NCBI GenBank assembly: GCA_947625085.1
Contig: CANQMV010000001.1
Location: forward strand, 3,722-67,721
Length of the DNA: 64,000 nucleotides
DNA from: an uncultured Bacilli bacterium
GTDB taxonomy: Bacteria; Bacillota_I; Bacilli_A; RF39; UBA660
Direction: 5' to 3'
Below are positions 5,941 through 53,516 of this stretch, piece after piece. A program made the translations under genes and the position numbers. Position 1 is the stretch's first letter. The number at the start of each line of letters is the position of its first letter. A model generated the notes under the pieces. It worked only from the letters and a program-made list of their open reading frames with translations, had not been told where the DNA came from and searched no databases.

Positions 5941-6039
5941 AATATGTAAATTATATCAAGAAAAATATATGAAAATTTCACCAAAAAAACATATTTTTTT
6001 ACTATTTTTGTGATATACTTAAAAGGTAGGAGAGAAAAG

Positions 6040-6969
6040 ATGAAAAAGGAGTTTAAGACCTTAAATGAGCAAGTTGAGATACTAAGAAATAAAGGATTAA
6101 TTATTAATGATGAAGAGTATGCTAAGACAGTTTTATTTAGAGAAAATTATTTCTTTTTAAATGGGTATCGTTACTTATTTATGCGTAGTAGTGTTGATAA
6201 AAGATATATAGAAGGATGTACTTTTGAAGAATTATATAGTTTATTTTTATTTGACCGAGAATTTAGAAATATTATTTTTAAAAATATTTTAATTATTGAA
6301 AATAATGTAAAATCGGTTATTAGTTACCAATTATCTCTTAAATATGGATATCGAGAAAAAGATTATTTAACCCCTAAAAATTTTACAACTAATAAAGAAA
6401 AAATTAAACAAGTTAATGATATCTTAAAAAAAATGAAAAGACAAATTAATATTAATGCTACTCAGCACTCGGCAACTATGCATTATGTTAATAATTATGG
6501 TTATATTCCCTTATGGGTTTTAGTTAAAGTTTTGTCTTTTGGAATTGTTGGAGAACTTTATTCTATTTTAAAAAAAGAAGACCAAATGGGAATAGCTGAA
6601 CTTTATAATGTCGATGTTGATGTATTAATAAATTATTTAACGATTTTATCTAATTATCGTAATTTATGTGCACATGAAGATATTGTTTATGAAAATAAAA
6701 CCCAAAGAAAGATTGCTGATAATAAATATCATAAGTTGCTTAATATTCCAATAATGGATGATGAATATATTTATGGAAAAGATGATTTATTTGCTTTAAT
6801 TATCATTATGAAACAAATGTTATCTAAAGAGGAATTTGCAAATTTGATAGAAGAAATTAGACATGTTTTAGCAAATTTAGAACTTAATTTACATACGATA
6901 AAAATAGATAAAGTATTAGATAGAATGGGATTTCCTAAAAATTATTATGAAATAAAAAATTTAGATTGA
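6040..6969 (+). CDS. Abi_2 (AbiD/AbiF-like) abortive-infection family protein
   Basis: Shares the N-terminal and central conserved blocks of the Abi_2 family (LNEQVEILRNKGLII, FFLNGYRYLF, LWVLVKVLSFG, YRNLCAHED). RBS AAAGGTAGGAGAG before ATG 6040. Confidence 0.75.
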   Translation: MKKEFKTLNEQVEILRNKGLIINDEEYAKTVLFRENYFFLNGYRYLFMRSSVDKRYIEGCTFEELYSLFLFDREFRNIIFKNILIIENNVKSVISYQLSLKYGYREKDYLTPKNFTTNKEKIKQVNDILKKMKRQININATQHSATMHYVNNYGYIPLWVLVKVLSFGIVGELYSILKKEDQMGIAELYNVDVDVLINYLTILSNYRNLCAHEDIVYENKTQRKIADNKYHKLLNIPIMDDEYIYGKDDLFALIIIMKQMLSKEEFANLIEEIRHVLANLELNLHTIKIDKVLDRMGFPKNYYEIKNLD

Positions 6970-8881: not shown

Positions 8882-9940
8882 TTATTTACACTTTTCATAT
8901 GGTAATTCATTGTTAAAAAACTTTTTAAAAGCAGAGATATAAGTAGTTGAATTTAATGGAATAAAATTTTTCGTTAAGAAATCTAATATTAGTTTTCTTT
9001 CTTCGAATGTTGTTTCAATTAACTCTCCGTTTACAGTAATTCCAAATCGATTATTTAATAAAGAGTCATATTGTAATTGTTGTTTAGGGAAAAATCTCAT
9101 TGAAAATAATGAAACTACATTTTTACTAAAGAATGTTCTATCCTCTTTATCAAAAATTTCATTGGCTTTTTTAATTAGTTCTTCAGGAGAATAAATAGTA
9201 TTTATATATAAATCAATACAATTAAAATTTTCTTTTTTCTCTTTAGCTATTTTAAAAATTTTATAAACATCATTAGTAATATTTTCTGCATTTTCTTTCA
9301 TTTCTTGACTCATTAAAAATTCTTGATACAAAGTAGGAAGATTTAGTCTCATATAATTAATTACACCATTGTATTTTAAATAATTCATACTTGTATTTTT
9401 AAATGTTAAAAATCTTTTGATAGAATATTTTGAATTAATACATTCTTCAATCAATTGTTTATATTTTTCTTTTTCTTTATCTGATAGTTTTGAAACTCTA
9501 TTAGAACTACTAACAGTTTTTTTCTTTTGAGTTATACTTGAATTTAATATATTGATAGTTAAATTATCATAAATTTTAGGATTTAAAATTATAATATCAG
9601 GTCTAAATTCGATAAAGTATTTATCAATATTTTCTTTTAAATAACTTAGAGGTAGATTTTGTCTATTTAAGTATTCATTTGCTTCTTCTTTAGATAATGT
9701 TAATAGTTTTTCGTATACTTTTCCATAATCAGGAATATCTTCTGATATTAGTATTTGTTCTTTTATATATTTTAATAAGCAAGCAACGTATTTTTGAACA
9801 GTTAGATTAAGTTTATGTGTTTCAATAACTCTTTCAACCCCTTGTTTACAAGGATTTTTAATATATAATTCATAAAGTGTTTTTAGAACTAAATCTGTTT
9901 TTTTAGCATTTGATGTAGGATTTGTTTTTTTATTTTCCAT
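8882..9940 (-). CDS. hypothetical protein; third cassette gene of the tRNA-Leu array
   Basis: 352-aa ORF with RBS AAAGGGGGA. Its own reverse-strand promoter is TTGATT at 9996-9991, a 17-nt spacer, and TATAAT at 9973-9968. Confidence 0.6.
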   Translation of the reverse strand: MENKKTNPTSNAKKTDLVLKTLYELYIKNPCKQGVERVIETHKLNLTVQKYVACLLKYIKEQILISEDIPDYGKVYEKLLTLSKEEANEYLNRQNLPLSYLKENIDKYFIEFRPDIIILNPKIYDNLTINILNSSITQKKKTVSSSNRVSKLSDKEKEKYKQLIEECINSKYSIKRFLTFKNTSMNYLKYNGVINYMRLNLPTLYQEFLMSQEMKENAENITNDVYKIFKIAKEKKENFNCIDLYINTIYSPEELIKKANEIFDKEDRTFFSKNVVSLFSMRFFPKQQLQYDSLLNNRFGITVNGELIETTFEERKLILDFLTKNFIPLNSTTYISAFKKFFNNELPYEKCK

Positions 9941-10296
9941 AATAGGTCCCCCTTTAAAAACGTTAGTATTATACTATAAAAAATTAAAAAAATCAAGAAA
10001 TATTTAACATATCGGTTTAATTACGTTTTAATTTTATGATTTTTTATTCGCATTTTTCGAATTTAGTATCTATCTGGTGCGAGTGACGTAGTTATCTACA
10101 ACTTTTTATAAACATAACTGATTTAAGTATCAATAAAAAAAATTACTTATTAGTTTTTTTTAAACATTTATATAATAAAAAAAGCAAGTTAGACGCATCC
10201 GACTTGCTCAGATGGAATCCGAATAATTAATCCCCTAGGTATTTTGACAAACATATCAAAATAACCTAAGGGATTATCCTTTTATATCAATATTCG

Positions 10297-10340
10297 AAAA
10301 AGTTTGAATAGATTCGTCAATGGTGTCCTAAAGGAAGAAG
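10297..10340. repeat. R_C: diverged third copy of the tRNA-Leu flank/att-like junction (ggtgtCCTAAAGGAAGAAG)
   Basis: AAAAGTTTGAATAGATTCGTCAATGGTGTCCTAAAGGAAGAAG aligns with R_B at 11608-11649. Confidence 0.5.
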
Positions 10341-10491
10341 TTCGACAAATTTTAATTTATCAAAAAAAACGATGGGTACCCCGGGCGAGATGAATTCTCA
10401 CATACTAAGTATGCTTACTGGCTATGCCAACACATCGTTATTCCCTCACAAGTATCCCATCTACAAATATATTATAACACAAAATTGTTTA

Positions 10492-11430
10492 TTATTCATA
10501 TTTTTTTTGATTTTTAAATTCTTCAATGTAAACTTGACTAATATATTCAATTGCTATATCACTATATTTATAAATTTTGCTTTTTGAATATTCAAATAAA
10601 TAACAATAATCTTGATTACTTTTTATGTTTTTTCTTTTACAAATATCTTGAAATTTATTTGGAGTAAATCCATGATTAGGTCCAAGAGATAGTTCCAAAG
10701 TTTCTTTTATTTTTTTTACTACATCAGTTGTAGTGTATGGATGCGTTTTTTCAATATCCTTTGGAACATTAATAACGGTTGCTAAATCTTTACTATCTTT
10801 TACAATTGTATATTTAATGTCCGCTTCAGATTCTTTTTTTGTAGAAATTAGTCTTAATGTTTGACCCAAAGATTCATCAGAATTTAACTCTTTTTTTAAT
10901 TTATCAAGTAATAATAAATTTGCTGGATTTAATATTAATGATGACACATCTTCATTATTGCCTGGATTCACTAGAGCAATATAAGGAGTTACTTTTTCAT
11001 TTAGATTATAATTAGGAAATTGTTTTTTAAAAAATTTATTATAATTTGTAAGACATCTTTGAAATGCAGGAGATAAAATATAATCATATTCAGGTAAAAT
11101 AAGGTGCGTAGCTTTGTTTCTTATATTTCTAATAAATGAAATATTATTTTTAGTTTTGTCTGTTGTGCTTGTAAAAATCTTTTCTACACATTCATCAAGT
11201 CCAATTGTTCTATTGGAATCATCCTTATAATTAATAACAGTAATGTCTTTTGCTTTATTAATAAGATATGCCTTTAATAACAATTCCCATGCATTACAGA
11301 TAAAAAAGCAAAAACCTTCTGTTCGATAATTTATAGTTGGTTTGTTAATAATTTCAATAGACATTAAGTACGCTTCTTCGGATTTATTCAATAGTGCATA
11401 AATATAATTACTTAACTCCTTCTCTGACAT
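10492..11430 (-). CDS. HEPN-like protein (Rx4H motif RNKATH); candidate RNase or abortive-infection effector
   Basis: R-x4-H in the block NIRNKATHLILPE. N-terminal helical block EGFCFFICNAWELLLKAYL. The start is taken at the third ATG, which follows RBS AAAAGGAG. Confidence 0.5.
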   Translation of the reverse strand: MSEKELSNYIYALLNKSEEAYLMSIEIINKPTINYRTEGFCFFICNAWELLLKAYLINKAKDITVINYKDDSNRTIGLDECVEKIFTSTTDKTKNNISFIRNIRNKATHLILPEYDYILSPAFQRCLTNYNKFFKKQFPNYNLNEKVTPYIALVNPGNNEDVSSLILNPANLLLLDKLKKELNSDESLGQTLRLISTKKESEADIKYTIVKDSKDLATVINVPKDIEKTHPYTTTDVVKKIKETLELSLGPNHGFTPNKFQDICKRKNIKSNQDYCYLFEYSKSKIYKYSDIAIEYISQVYIEEFKNQKKYE

Positions 11431-11522
11431 TAATACCATCTCCTTTTAATTTATTATTATATTATATAAATTTTAAAAATAATAAAATTATTTTCACATG
11501 TATATTGAGTTGCAATATACAA

Positions 11523-11649
11523 GTGCGTTTTCTAAATTGACAAATCTATCAATTAAATTTAAAAATATTATATCATAGATTCAAACATATTAAAACTCGA
11601 ACTATAAAAGTCCGAGTTTAATATCAATTTGGTGCCCTAAAGGAAGGAG
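11523..11649. repeat. R_B: roughly 80% identical copy of the tRNA-Leu downstream flank, including the last 6 nt of the tRNA (TGGTGC), followed by new sequence
   Basis: Aligns base by base with 12733-12858 and diverges exactly after TGGTGC. Contains a conserved extended -10 on the reverse strand (TATAAT 11572-11567). Confidence 0.7.
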
Positions 11650-11791
11650 TATGACAACTGTTTTATTTTAAATAGTCATCTAAATATTTTTTCCATTCTG
11701 GGGTATTTTCTTCATCAAATAAATGACATAAAAAATCTACAACTATTTGATGCCTATCTTTTGATTCAGTTATCCAAAACGCGTTAGCCTT

Positions 11792-12667
11792 TTAATTACA
11801 TTTTTTTATATACACACTCATTTTAGCATTTTCTAACATATCTTCAGTAATATTTCCAAGATATAAATATGGATTTTCATTATATTCCGGTTTATATAAT
11901 TTTCCTATACAGCTTAAAAAATCTTGAGAAAAACCAATACTTTTTAAGTATTCCAAATAATGACTAAGTTTATAAAATGGTAATTTACTAAAATTACTTT
12001 GAGTCAAATAATTCATAACTATCATCATATAACAAAGAAGATCGGTATTCCTAGAAGCTAAATATTCACCATCAGGTCCTATATTATATTTATTTTCAGA
12101 ACCAAAATAAAGCAAATTATTACCACATAATTTTAAATATTTAGAGTTAATTCCTTTTTCAAATAAACTTACACCATTTGAATCAATTATTTTTATTTCA
12201 TCGTCCATAGTTATAATAATATTATCTTCATGAAAATCACCAAAATGAAAATGATAAGGAAAAATTTGCAGATCTTTTATTCTTTCTAGAATGAATCCTA
12301 TCCTTTGTAAGACTTCAATTTTTTGTTTGAAATTTACGTTTGGGTTTGTTAAATAACTTTTTAAATTTAATCCTTCTATATATTTACTTAAGTATCCTAC
12401 TAAATATTGATCAATATATACTAATGACTCTGGTAATACTAATTCAGGTACAATCTCTGCAAATATACTTTTATATTCCATTAAAATTTGAATAGTTTTT
12501 AATCCTTGTGAAGAATAATAATTATATATATTCTTCATAATTTTCATTAACAATCTTTCTTTGCCTAATTCATAAAAATAAAATATTCCTTCACTTGTAG
12601 CAGAATTATCCGGTTTGAATCTTTCAAATGTAGATAATTGTTCTTTTTTTAAGAAGATACTATTCAT
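11792..12667 (-). CDS. protein kinase-like / aminoglycoside-phosphotransferase-like fold protein
   Basis: HFGDFHEDNIII resembles the HxDxxxxN catalytic loop. IIDSNG resembles the DFG-like metal-binding motif. RBS AAAGGAG. Confidence 0.5.
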   Translation of the reverse strand: MNSIFLKKEQLSTFERFKPDNSATSEGIFYFYELGKERLLMKIMKNIYNYYSSQGLKTIQILMEYKSIFAEIVPELVLPESLVYIDQYLVGYLSKYIEGLNLKSYLTNPNVNFKQKIEVLQRIGFILERIKDLQIFPYHFHFGDFHEDNIIITMDDEIKIIDSNGVSLFEKGINSKYLKLCGNNLLYFGSENKYNIGPDGEYLASRNTDLLCYMMIVMNYLTQSNFSKLPFYKLSHYLEYLKSIGFSQDFLSCIGKLYKPEYNENPYLYLGNITEDMLENAKMSVYIKKCN

Positions 12668-12732
12668 ATATTTCTCCTTTCTGATATTTATAATGAGTAT
12701 GTTATCATATTTGCCAATTGAAAAATTGGCAA

Positions 12733-12852
12733 GTGTGTTTTCTAAATTGACAAATAATCAATTTAGATTTGTGAAGTATTATAACATAAAATTAAACATT
12801 AAAAAACACGAACTATTTAAATAAATTAAAAAGTCCGAGTTTAATGTCAATC
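12733..12852. repeat. R_A: native flank of tRNA-Leu carrying the cassette promoter template
   Basis: Reverse-strand extended -10 TGTTATAAT at 12786-12778. Perfect palindrome TTGCCAATT-n4-AATTGGCAA at 12711-12732 lies just downstream of it. Confidence 0.65.
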
Positions 12853-12936
12853 TGGTGCTTGTGGAGGGAATCGAACCCTCACATCATAGATACACGATTT
12901 TGAGTCGTGCGCGTCTACCAATTCCGCCACACAAGC
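12853..12936 (-). tRNA. tRNA-Leu (anticodon CAA), type II with long variable arm, CCA encoded
   Basis: Reverse complement is GCTTGTGTGGCGGAATTGGTAGACGCGCACGACTCAAAATCGTG...GAGGGTTCGATTCCCTCCACAAGCACCA. It has a 7-bp acceptor stem, anticodon loop CTCAAAA, and T-loop TTCGATT. Confidence 0.9.
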
Positions 12937-13079
12937 AATACATATAGATTATAGCATAAAAAATTAAAAATAGAGCTTTTTTAAACTATTTTTTTCTAAA
13001 AATTATAAAATTCCAAAAAATGGTAAAAATTTTAATAATTAATTTTTAATATGATATACTTTAATTGGGTGGGTGCTAT

Positions 13080-52492: not shown

Positions 52493-52639
52493 AATAAAAT
52501 AAAAATAAAATTATAAAAATAAAATTCTTGAATTGTTAATTAAAAAGGCAAGGTTACTTTTAAAAATTCGTGATGTTAATCATTAGTTAAAATGATACCA
52601 TTTTTAAAAATTCGTGATTGACATTAAAATACTCGTATG

Positions 52640-52762
52640 TTAAGCTATCTCTACCGGAGGATTTTCCTTGTCAGGTCGATAGTTAGGATTTGATCGAAAG
52701 ATTAAGTGTACTGTTTGGTGCATCAACCTAATTGGGGAAGGACGTAAAGTCCTTTTTCTATG
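52640..52762 (+). ncRNA. candidate small structured RNA ending in an intrinsic terminator (GGACGTAAAGTCC plus T5)
   Basis: Relatively GC-rich segment with local hairpins (TCGAT...ATCGA, C-GAAA-G). Not followed by a + strand gene. A 17-mer TTTTAAAAATTCGTGAT is duplicated upstream at 52558 and 52604. Confidence 0.3.
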
Positions 52763-53516
52763 GCAAAAAAATCTTATAATCTAAAAAAGCTAAATTTTTT
52801 AATAAATTACTATCTTCGTTTAACTTAAAAGTTAAAAAATTAGTATCAAGAGTTTTTCTTCTTACAGTTCCAGCTACTAAATCAGCTGCTTGAACAACAT
52901 AACTATGATTTGATTTCTGATAAGTTAAATCAATTTCTAAATCATTAAATAAAATAGGTTCATAAGAAGTTCCATAATTAAAATTGGTTATTCCATGTTT
53001 CAATTCTTCAAAAAGACCATTTCGTAAATTATAATAACCATTACTTTTAGTCGATTGTTCATCAATGTTTAAAACTAATTTAACCTTTTTATAAGGATTC
53101 ATCTTTTTCTTTTCAATTAAATTAGTGATTACTTCTTTAATAAATCTTCGAATTGCATAGTCAGTGTATCGACCTTTAGAAGCTTTATCATTTATAATAT
53201 ATGGATAAATTTTTTTATTTTCAATAATACAAGCTATTACAAAATATTTTTTTATATAATTAATAATTCTTCTTTTATCGTTTTTAGATAAATTGTTATG
53301 TTTTAATTCTGGGCAATTATTTTTACAAATTTTATTTTGACAATAATTGCATTTAATACTATCAACTATACTTCTATATTGAGTAATAAACTTGTCTTTT
53401 TCTTCTTTACTTAAAAAAACAACTCCACCTAAAACTAAAATTTCTTCATTAGTTGATAATTTTCCGGAATCATCTAAATTTATATATAGGGTTTGAACAA
53501 ATTCTTTTTCTTGCAT
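52758..53516 (-). CDS. DUF3800-like protein
   Basis: N-terminal LYINLDDSGK and C-terminal VVQAADLVAG resemble the DUF3800 signature blocks. RBS AAGAAAGGAC. Confidence 0.5.
   Translation of the reverse strand: MQEKEFVQTLYINLDDSGKLSTNEEILVLGGVVFLSKEEKDKFITQYRSIVDSIKCNYCQNKICKNNCPELKHNNLSKNDKRRIINYIKKYFVIACIIENKKIYPYIINDKASKGRYTDYAIRRFIKEVITNLIEKKKMNPYKKVKLVLNIDEQSTKSNGYYNLRNGLFEELKHGITNFNYGTSYEPILFNDLEIDLTYQKSNHSYVVQAADLVAGTVRRKTLDTNFLTFKLNEDSNLLKNLAFLDYKIFLP

Follow-up and report, generated by a model that had tools for sequence, protein, structure and literature searches.

Within a 64,000-nt stretch of an uncultured Bacilli bacterium (RF39; UBA660; GenBank assembly GCA_947625085.1, contig CANQMV010000001.1), hereafter the window, single-gene cassettes stand in an array behind a tRNA-Leu(CAA) gene. 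Their joints repeat the same elements, which are, in tRNA direction, a terminator hairpin (P1), an extended -10 (P2), a conserved box (P3) and a palindrome (P4). On balance, we consider it somewhat probable that the joint shared between such tRNA-linked cassettes is an insulated terminator-promoter-leader module, in which P3 would be a reassortment point and P4 an RNA stem-loop on the cargo side. The evidence comes from related copies in other gut Bacilli, from compensatory changes in P4, from the genes that surround the module and from the places where similarity between genomes breaks off.

The module family in gut Bacilli

The 20-base box TGTCAATTTAGAAAAC(A/G)CAC was identified in 115 stretches from ~84 species-level genomes (pattern TGTCAATTTAGAAAACNCAC, searched in a one-genome-per-species collection; the ~84 remain after about six chance matches were taken out). 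The hosts were nearly all metagenome-assembled genomes labelled 'uncultured Bacilli' from rabbit, human, mouse and deer gut, and also included Clostridium sp. CAG:433. The box was absent from plasmid and phage collections, which returned AT-rich spurious matches only, and IMG/VR gave a single chance match within a coding region. The invariance of P3 is partly an artefact of searching with P3, given that in 15 unselected modules the box was exact in 5 and carried 1-3 mismatches in 9. The box sequence was in no paper by full-text search, and we found no description of such arrays.

The related copies define a ~170-base joint between single-gene cassettes stacked behind tRNA genes in a clade of very AT-rich, uncultured Bacilli of the gut. 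The first half of its consensus is ...CACCA / GATTGATAGGAAACTCGGAC-loop-GTTCGAGTTTT (P1) / AAAATGTTTAAATTTATGATATAAT (P2) / ATTTATAGTTTAAATTGATATATT / TGTCAATTTAGAAAACACAC (P3), and the second half is TTGCATATTG-ACAAC-CAATATGCA(TGTG) (P4) / Shine-Dalgarno sequence (SD) / variable gene, with TTGCATATTG-n5-CAATATGCAA as the consensus arms of P4. P1 lies directly after 52 of the 97 tRNA genes in the loci (14 anticodon types), and CACCA precedes it in 92 of 116 cases. Many loci hold arrays in which a tRNA gene is followed by n units of P1, P2, P3, P4, open reading frame (ORF) and end, and several units per tRNA are common. The cargo across loci includes GNAT acetyltransferases, DUF2513, DUF7736 and many unknowns, and the two cargo proteins of the window score as defence candidates (PDC-S19 at 9e-68; PD-T4-6 weakly, at 1e-5).

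The two copies of the module in the window (G+C content, 24.8%) are listed below. All array features are on the reverse strand.

12853..12936, reverse: tRNA-Leu(CAA) (ARAGORN; Rfam tRNA, 61.7 bits), whose 3' GCACCA at 12858-12853 is junction 1
12801..12842, reverse: P1 copy 1, terminator hairpin AAACTCGGAC-n19-GTTCGTGTTT and T run, abutting tRNA-Leu
12778..12786, reverse: P2 copy 1, extended -10 TGTTATAAT (sequence, motif scan, module conservation)
12741..12767, reverse: IR-A copy 1, inverted repeat TCTAAATTGA-n7-TCAATTTAGA, perfect 10-7-10, predicted 5'-proximal leader stem-loop
12733..12752, reverse: P3 copy 1, box TGTCAATTTAGAAAACACAC, containing the IR-A 3' arm; putative adapter-cargo reassortment point
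12711..12732, reverse: P4 copy 1, hairpin TTGCCAATT-TTTC-AATTGGCAA, perfect 9-4-9 (covariance model, 38.1 bits)
11593..11619, reverse: P1 copy 2, terminator hairpin AAACTCGGAC-TTTTATA-GTTCGAGTTT (terminator scan)
11567..11575, reverse: P2 copy 2, extended -10 TGATATAAT (sequence, motif scan)
11535..11554, reverse: IR-A copy 2, weaker, AATTGATA-n4-TGTCAATT (leader fold)
11523..11542, reverse: P3 copy 2, TGTCAATTTAGAAAACGCAC (box search of the window)
11495..11525, reverse: P4 copy 2, CACTTGTATATTG-CAACT-CAATATACATGTG, 13-5-13 with one T/T mismatch (covariance model, 71.5 bits)

P1 copy 1 is homologous to copy 2, which was positive in the terminator scan, and is strongly conserved across 67 modules. 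The repeats start at CACCA (12857-12853, the tRNA-Leu 3' end, and 11634-11630), and both leaders are predicted to fold into two hairpins (z = -4.6 and -2.0).

The original prediction, which was made from the window sequence by itself, had described part of this anatomy. The extended -10 that it read at 12786-12778 is there. The second -10 also exists, at the corrected coordinates 11575-11567, where a T that had been missed makes a full TGnTATAAT. The box TTTGTCAATTTAGAAAAC(A/G)CAC is present as described at 12754-12733 and 11544-11523, and these are its only two matches in the window at up to 3 mismatches, with none expected by chance. The two palindromes (12732-12711 and 11525-11495) were likewise read correctly, and their placement with the box in the 5' leader of the cassettes is supported. 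What the earlier reading overlooked was IR-A, a third inverted repeat with its 3' arm inside the conserved box, and the fact that the repeat begins directly at the tRNA-Leu 3' end and takes in the terminator hairpin.

In the explanation that we favour, a tRNA 3' end or an imitation of it (...CACCA) would open the module, which is read in tRNA direction. P1 would then end the upstream transcript as an intrinsic terminator, and the -35-less P2 would restart transcription. The leader of the new transcript would carry IR-A as a 5'-proximal stem-loop, its 3' arm in P3, followed by the P4 stem-loop just before the ribosome-binding site.

P4 as a covarying hairpin

A palindrome alone is weak evidence here, because perfect inverted repeats of at least 9 bp are not rare in the window (24 vs 10.2 +/- 3.2 in shuffles). 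In our reading of the sequences, the decisive evidence is the position that the palindromes share after the same box, together with their recurrence in more than 120 related copies elsewhere.

We built a covariance model from 12 P4 copies and aligned 125 matches, of which 122 were distinct sequences. Across the distinct copies, the inner 8-bp helix was 90% paired, and two-sided changes occurred in 7 of its 8 pairs (C-G to U-A 16 times, U-A to A-U 9 times, and G-C to A-U or U-A 6 times). The covariation score was 0.132 vs 0.074 in shuffles (0 of 500 as high) and at most 0.034 in slid controls. When the 5' base was T and not C, its partner was A in 16 of 24 copies, as compared with 13 of ~96 copies when the 5' base was C. 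The outer CACAC/GTGTG helix was paired in 55% of copies, and loop lengths were 3-9 nt. An identical 5' arm, TTGCATATTG, was found in 63 of 130 copies, ahead of unrelated genes. In the window, copy 2 carries the C-G to U-A change, and copy 1 has undergone double compensation (GCATATTG/CAATATGC to GCCAATT(G)/(C)AATTGGC), which is clearest in the 91% orthologue of the kinase-like cassette at locus L119 (TTGCCCATTGT-n6-ACAATTGGCAA; L numbers denote the loci compared). Judged by these substitutions, both window palindromes are diverged copies of one family-wide hairpin.

The original prediction had proposed a separate dimeric DNA-binding protein as the gate of each cassette, possibly the product of the cassette itself, which would make each palindrome a private operator. 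It is true that palindromes of unlike sequence occupy equivalent positions in the two window cassettes, and that close orthologues keep their own variant. The 91% orthologue of the kinase-like gene (L119) retains the P4 variant of the window, and the HEPN orthologue in L102 (98.7% protein identity) keeps the P4 arms with a different loop. The palindromes are thus retained in orthologous cassettes, but at >90% identity this is expected from descent alone. The kinase-like protein has only six detectable homologues, of which the 57% homologue (L117) has a diverged P3 and a different P4 variant (TTGTACATTGA...TCAATGAAT) and the 45% homologue has no module. Other observations also speak against private operators. 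The same arm precedes unrelated genes in 63 of 130 copies, the arm changes are compensatory, and a dimeric operator would not tolerate loops that vary from 3 to 9 nt. Box and hairpin also stand, promoter-less, at the 3' ends of convergent genes, and domain searches found no HTH or other recognisable DNA-binding domain in the kinase-like or HEPN cargo protein. We therefore give the private operator almost no credence; one dedicated dimeric regulator per cassette appears very unlikely from the sequences, and we reject it. The palindromes look instead like variants of one family-wide hairpin, and under the favoured explanation P4 would be a base-paired structure that is kept by compensatory change and travels with the cargo gene.

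The predicted promoter

In 67 promoter-type modules, the TG and the -10 positions T1, A2 and T6 were at least 90% conserved, and the -35 region showed no consensus and overlapped the P1 T run. A gene of at least 70 aa on the same strand started ~50-130 nt downstream in 30 of 46 promoter-bearing copies, as against 2 of 46 in which the nearest ORF was opposite; most of the others had no ORF of at least 70 aa. TGnTATAAT was also enriched in the window (23 sites vs 10.5 +/- 3.2 expected), mostly upstream of genes, and each joint has its own. The earlier promoter call agrees with this conservation and with the genes downstream on the same strand. Our results support P2 as a -35-less extended -10 promoter of the sigma-70 type, and we infer its activity from this conservation and context.

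The HEPN orthologue in L102 has, in addition, a perfect TGATATAAT between P4 and the SD (L102 5620-5660 vs window 11440-11470), and at this second site the window cassette has a 9-nt deletion with the TG lost. The gene of the HEPN cassette may be transcribed also from downstream of the palindrome, by a second promoter borne on the cargo. Two other promoter candidates were considered. A reverse-strand promoter with TTGACA in the P3 complement was rejected (its -10 is not conserved and is missing in copy 1). A forward promoter within P3-P4, TTGTCA-18-(C/T)ATATT, might serve promoter-less sense copies, but we regard its probability as low; it would leave the conservation of the spacer and the copies with inverted cargo unexplained.

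Cargo orientation and a predicted reverse terminator

Copies of P3-P4 that lack the promoter belong largely to classes where a second terminator comes after P1. In 30 promoter-less copies, the end of a convergent gene lies ~52-62 nt past the beginning of P3, at the base of P4. The hairpin is stronger next to a convergent gene (mean of -11 vs ~-7 kcal/mol), and 11 of these 30 copies have the extra CACAC/GTGTG helix. On the opposite strand, P4 and P3 have the consensus CACACGCATATTG-loop-CAATATGCAAGTGTG followed by the T-rich TTTTCTAAATT, which reads as a textbook intrinsic terminator for inverted cargo. The terminator scan flagged window copy 1 on the forward strand (12706-12737). In the window itself both cargo genes are sense, and the convergent placement is seen in the 30 related copies.

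Inverted cargo lacks the promoter, and under the favoured explanation P4 with the T-rich P3 complement would serve as the intrinsic terminator of the gene. In sense cassettes the same pair would keep antisense transcription from running into the promoter and the tRNA. For sense cargo, P4 would be a stem-loop of the 5' untranslated region. Since it does not cover the ribosome-binding site, its role is more plausibly sought in RNA stability or insulation. That P4 might occlude the ribosome-binding site was considered and rejected (the 3' arm ends 3-20 nt before the SD).

Mosaic arrays of adapters and cargo

The cargo genes of the window and the ends of their units are as follows.

11792..12667, reverse: cargo 1, 291-aa protein-kinase-like protein (SD AAAGGAG at 12680-12674; start codon at 12667); no Pfam match, weak PD-T4-6 match (1e-5)
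11630..11646, reverse: endA copy 1, CTTCCTTTAGGGCACCA, pseudo-tRNA end that closes cassette 1 at junction 1; same motif at the end of L119
10492..11430, reverse: cargo 2, DUF3644 (HEPN-like) + EC042_2821 nuclease-like protein (PADLOC PDC-S19, 9e-68); start codon at 11430, first ATG of its ORF at 11439
10321..10337, reverse: endA copy 2, CTTCCTTTAGGACACCA; L102 similarity ends exactly at 10321

The sole sequence that unit ends have in common with tRNA-Leu is CACCA. The two kinds of end, endA and endB, are each conserved among themselves and are no tRNA fragments, and ARAGORN finds no tRNA there.

Breakpoints were taken from megablast comparisons between all loci. High-identity segments start or stop at CACCA (offsets of -6 to +16) and at P3, where left ends fall at -12 and right ends between +28 and +34, and the arrays are therefore mosaics of adapter and cargo segments. 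The HEPN unit of the window, for example, matches L102 at 96.7% identity from just upstream of P3 to the A of CACCA (10321), beyond which L102 runs on; the cargo 2 protein itself is 98.7% identical there. The same cargo is found behind different tRNAs and P1/P2 variants (L090/L110; L059/L066; L004/L046/L050). Adapters, which reach from CACCA to P3, consist of P1-P2, P1-promoter-KilA-N, P1-terminator or P1-promoter-small gene-terminator, and a cargo segment consists of P4, a gene in either orientation and a pseudo-tRNA end.

The KilA-N protein (~290 aa, PF04383) is the most recurrent array gene, with 12 loci in the clustering (e.g., L003, L004, L005, L013, L050, L063, L075, L093 and L103). In at least 12 genomes its adapter runs from CACCA through a long-loop P1 and TGATAAAAT to the gene, with P3 5 nt past the stop codon, and in at least 10 genome pairs the KilA-N segment always begins at CACCA and reaches the 5' arm of P4. 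Behind this adapter, variant P4 5' arms occur with compensating 3' arms (L020, L053), which indicates that P4 belongs to the cargo and that the exchange point lies in or just before P3. In the favoured explanation, P3 and CACCA would be the two sites at which segments are exchanged between genomes, by a mechanism that could be homologous or site-specific. The KilA-N protein is a candidate for a trans-acting partner of the module, and no KilA-N gene was found in the window.

Two further sequence patterns recur in the modules. The IR-A left arm, an upstream partner for the P3 segment TCAATTTA, was present in 82 of 112 copies vs 21 of 448 controls, at a spacing that varies by adapter class. The heptamer ATTGAYA or its complement reached 15.3 per kb in modules vs 1.3 per kb overall. 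It occupies four fixed sites, one just past CACCA, one within the left arm of IR-A, one in inverted form where P3 begins and one at the P4 top; window examples are at 12851-12845, 12762-12756 and 12752-12746.

Regarding the history of the cassettes, what remains of another gene's 3' end (...LCHLFDEENTPEWKKYLDDYLK*) lies between the kinase-like ORF and endA (window 11650-11790, reverse; L119 1040-1170). The 91% orthologue has kept it as well, which suggests that an earlier cargo was exchanged for the current one within an unchanged frame. L119 itself is an independently assembled Logan contig of 1203 nt that extends from inside P1 to exactly ...GGGCACCA, a single array period 93.7% identical to the window, which fits either an assembly break at repeats or a free unit.

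Weighing the explanations

Several points count against an insulated module with an RNA stem-loop. The alignment behind the covariation was fitted to the model, and the related copies are not independent. A cruder, independent pairing test gave a weak result, with a copy's own arm outperforming the consensus arm in 36 copies and falling behind it in 26, and the 3' arm of P4 is decayed in many copies. Counts of G-U vs A-C pairs are uninformative on the folding strand (a 51:20 excess is gone given base composition and transition bias). Some modules drive a gene without P3-P4, which is therefore dispensable for expression. Nor does a U-tract alone explain the 20-nt conservation of P3, the kept TCAATTTA partner or the registered ATTGAYA. 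The conservation of P3, the occurrence of its TCAATTTA partner in unrelated adapters and the heptamers suggest a protein partner or a recombination function.

A recombination function would mean that P3, joined by IR-A, ATTGAYA and perhaps the folded P4, forms one of a pair of alternating sites for site-specific recombination, with CACCA/GATTGATA as the other. A recombinase encoded elsewhere would excise, insert and shuffle segments at these sites in an attC-like manner, effects on expression would be secondary, and the idea is compatible with the explanation that we favour. We hold it to be possible but rather doubtful. It would account for inter-genome breakpoints at just CACCA and P3, for the same cargo behind different tRNAs and adapters, for cargo that starts right past the P4 3' arm in either orientation, and for P3-P4 being retained where the promoter is absent. 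A conserved box beside a covarying, TT-bulged hairpin also resembles sites that are read as folded single strands, ATTGAYA is enriched at fixed positions as described above, and the L119 contig is exactly one period, from P1 to CACCA. However, breakpoints inside conserved blocks are also produced by homologous recombination. A motif scan (not a profile search) of the ORFs of at least 150 aa in the 64-kb window revealed no HxxR...GH-type recombinase. No recombinase recurs in the 115 loci, in which one tyrosine recombinase and three Mob_Pre genes occur, none beside P3-P4. The R-box consensus of integrons is missing. Neither a circular nor an empty-site junction came to light, and two metagenome pattern scans were empty; in the search for empty sites, exact look-up of the flanking 352-aa protein gave no match, and that of a 91-aa protein gave only a 609-nt contig. 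A relaxase/oriT idea was also considered, on account of a reverse-strand ...AGTGTG/TT that recalls a MobV-like nick region, and was rejected given that the three Mob_Pre genes are not beside P3-P4.

Taken further, this idea would make the window cassettes two units of an undescribed cassette-shuffling system in ~84 species, with adapters and cargo joined at CACCA/GATTGATA and P3 and with the palindromes as the folded part of the site. The KilA-N adapter protein or a housekeeping recombinase would be the candidate recombination factors. We put this forward tentatively, as less likely than not but with a substantial chance of being correct.

A protein partner could alternatively be a regulator. 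P3, IR-A and ATTGAYA may bind a single trans-acting protein (KilA-N or XRE), so that all cassettes are gated together. P3 lies at ~+17 to +37 of the predicted transcript, a usual position for an operator, and the heptamers are repeated, both direct and inverted. The KilA-N gene ends 5 nt before P3 in at least 12 genomes, and a recurrent gene-less cassette with an sRNA-like sequence, described below, starts with the P3-like TGTCAAGGAAACTTGCATA. Yet the spacing of the IR-A arms ranges from -2 to 15 nt by adapter class, P3-P4 is also found where there is nothing to regulate (no promoter, convergent gene), and the KilA-N gene is missing from the window. We consider such a shared operator unlikely.

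Further elements in the window and the loci

Downstream of the HEPN gene, the array ends with two elements that lack an ORF.

10362..10479, reverse: second part of cargo 2, TGTTATAAT (10479-10471) and a ~95-nt structured RNA candidate with a terminator end
10075..10320, reverse: unit 3, gene-less, two hairpins and terminator, in ~20 loci; ends with endB ...GTTGTAGATAACTACGTCACTCGCACCA (10102-10075)

The RNA candidate (GATGGGATACTTGTGAGGG...CCCATCGTTTTTTTT) and its TGTTATAAT also occur in L020 (1291-1420) and L102 (4552-4659), at 97-99% identity. Both in the window and in L102 it lies downstream of the HEPN/PDC-S19 gene, and in L020 it is found by itself, immediately behind P3-P4; its fold z is only -1.6. 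Unit 3 has no ORF at 10150-10320 (reverse), where a hairpin (TAATCCCTTAGGT...ACCTAGGGGATTA) and a terminator (GCAAGT...ACTTGC plus seven T) are found. Its first ~100 nt recur, 84-92% identical, in ~20 of the loci compared. Beyond the GCACCA end of unit 3 (10075) lie a P1-like remnant and then a chromosomal 352-aa gene.

A further gene-less cassette recurs in other loci, in which a short P1, a terminator (AAAACGACTTGTCAAAAAGTCGTTTTT) and TGTTATTAT precede a ~120-nt sRNA-like sequence of two hairpins and a terminator. At its start is TGTCAAGGAAACTTGCATAAAATAAAAAAGG, a shortened form of the P3-P4 5' arm, and the cassette was identified in L014, L015, L018, L024, L031, L063, L070 (1099-1330), L078, L080, L084, L115 and L117 (2500-2700). 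Rfam 15 had no family for the leader, the RNA candidate or the sRNA-like cassette at gathering or permissive thresholds, and over 9900-13000 the tRNA was the one match (no meaningful hit up to E = 5).

At a distance of 3 kb past the array there is an Abi_2/AbiD abortive-infection gene (6010-6969, forward), so that the neighbourhood as a whole looks like a defence island. Downstream of tRNA-Arg(CCG), at 52493-52780 (forward), the motif AAAAATTCGTGAT occurs twice with a G+C-richer stretch and a terminator-like hairpin (GGACGTAAAGTCC plus T run), possibly a further small RNA. No P1 module accompanies the remaining three tRNAs of the window.

Comparison with known systems

These arrays lack the defining features of integrons and of integrase-borne islands. 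They resemble integrons (IntI, attI, attC) in their tandem, mostly single-gene cassettes, in their accessory or defence cargo (here GNAT and defence candidates) and in the repeated imperfect palindrome between cassettes, with covarying arms, a conserved flank and a bulge in the stem. Unlike integrons, they have no intI-type integrase by the array (motif scan of the window; none recurrent in the loci). By inspection, the P3-P4 consensus has no R''/R' boxes (RYYYAAC/GTTRRRY), since its AGAAAAC and GTTTTCT do not fit. The arrays also start at a tRNA 3' end and not at attI, carry a terminator and a promoter at each joint instead of a single Pc, alternate between two junctions (CACCA and P3) instead of one, and hold cargo in both orientations. 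To our knowledge, no integrons have been reported in Firmicutes.

In tycheposons and other tRNA-targeting islands (bioRxiv 10.1101/2020.12.28.424599), as here, niche or defence cargo builds up beside tRNA genes, units are parted by imitation or partial tRNA 3' ends, and many units have no recombinase of their own. The units described here differ in being ~1.2 kb with one gene, in having only CACCA in common with a real tRNA, in placing the same module downstream of at least 14 tRNA types, and in their second junction at P3; we found no associated tyrosine recombinase or replication module. Integrase-less elements of this kind (CIMEs) accrete in streptococci.

Mobile or reused promoters (PMC3575422) likewise put the same promoter and leader before many non-homologous genes, within a genome and across species. 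The unit here is a terminator-promoter-box-hairpin that is tied to tRNA ends and to the cassette architecture, and part of it would also act as a terminator for inverted genes. Small intergenic repeats with promoters, terminators or hairpins are well represented by the Correia elements of Neisseria, by REP/BIME and by BOX/RUP of pneumococci. Like these, the module is a short, abundant and structured intergenic repeat that would alter the transcription and mRNA ends of its neighbours. It differs in that no terminal inverted repeats or target-site duplication were seen, and in its constant position at cassette joints with a fixed orientation relative to the tRNA. The pdif modules of Acinetobacter plasmids, which are small, single-function and bounded by short palindromic, alternating Xer sites with the recombinase encoded elsewhere, offer another parallel. 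By eye, P4 and P3 do not resemble the 11-6-11 dif consensus, and their location is chromosomal and tRNA-linked.

Significance

Palindromes at matching positions are not necessarily operators, even when their sequences differ between paralogous leaders. In the present case, promoter and hairpin would be the visible part of a standardised joint that plugs unrelated single genes behind tRNA genes in at least 84 species, many of the plugged-in genes being anti-phage candidates such as the PDC-S19/HEPN and kinase-like proteins. Even if exchange is only homologous, the joint would be a natural insulated expression cassette (terminator, -35-less promoter, two-stem-loop leader and reverse terminator) that could be adopted for uncultured low-GC bacteria. 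Should the joints prove to be true recombination sites, they would represent integron-like gene capture in a Firmicutes branch, with two alternating sites and a terminator and promoter at each joint, and would help to explain how defence genes are exchanged among the reduced-genome Bacilli of the gut.

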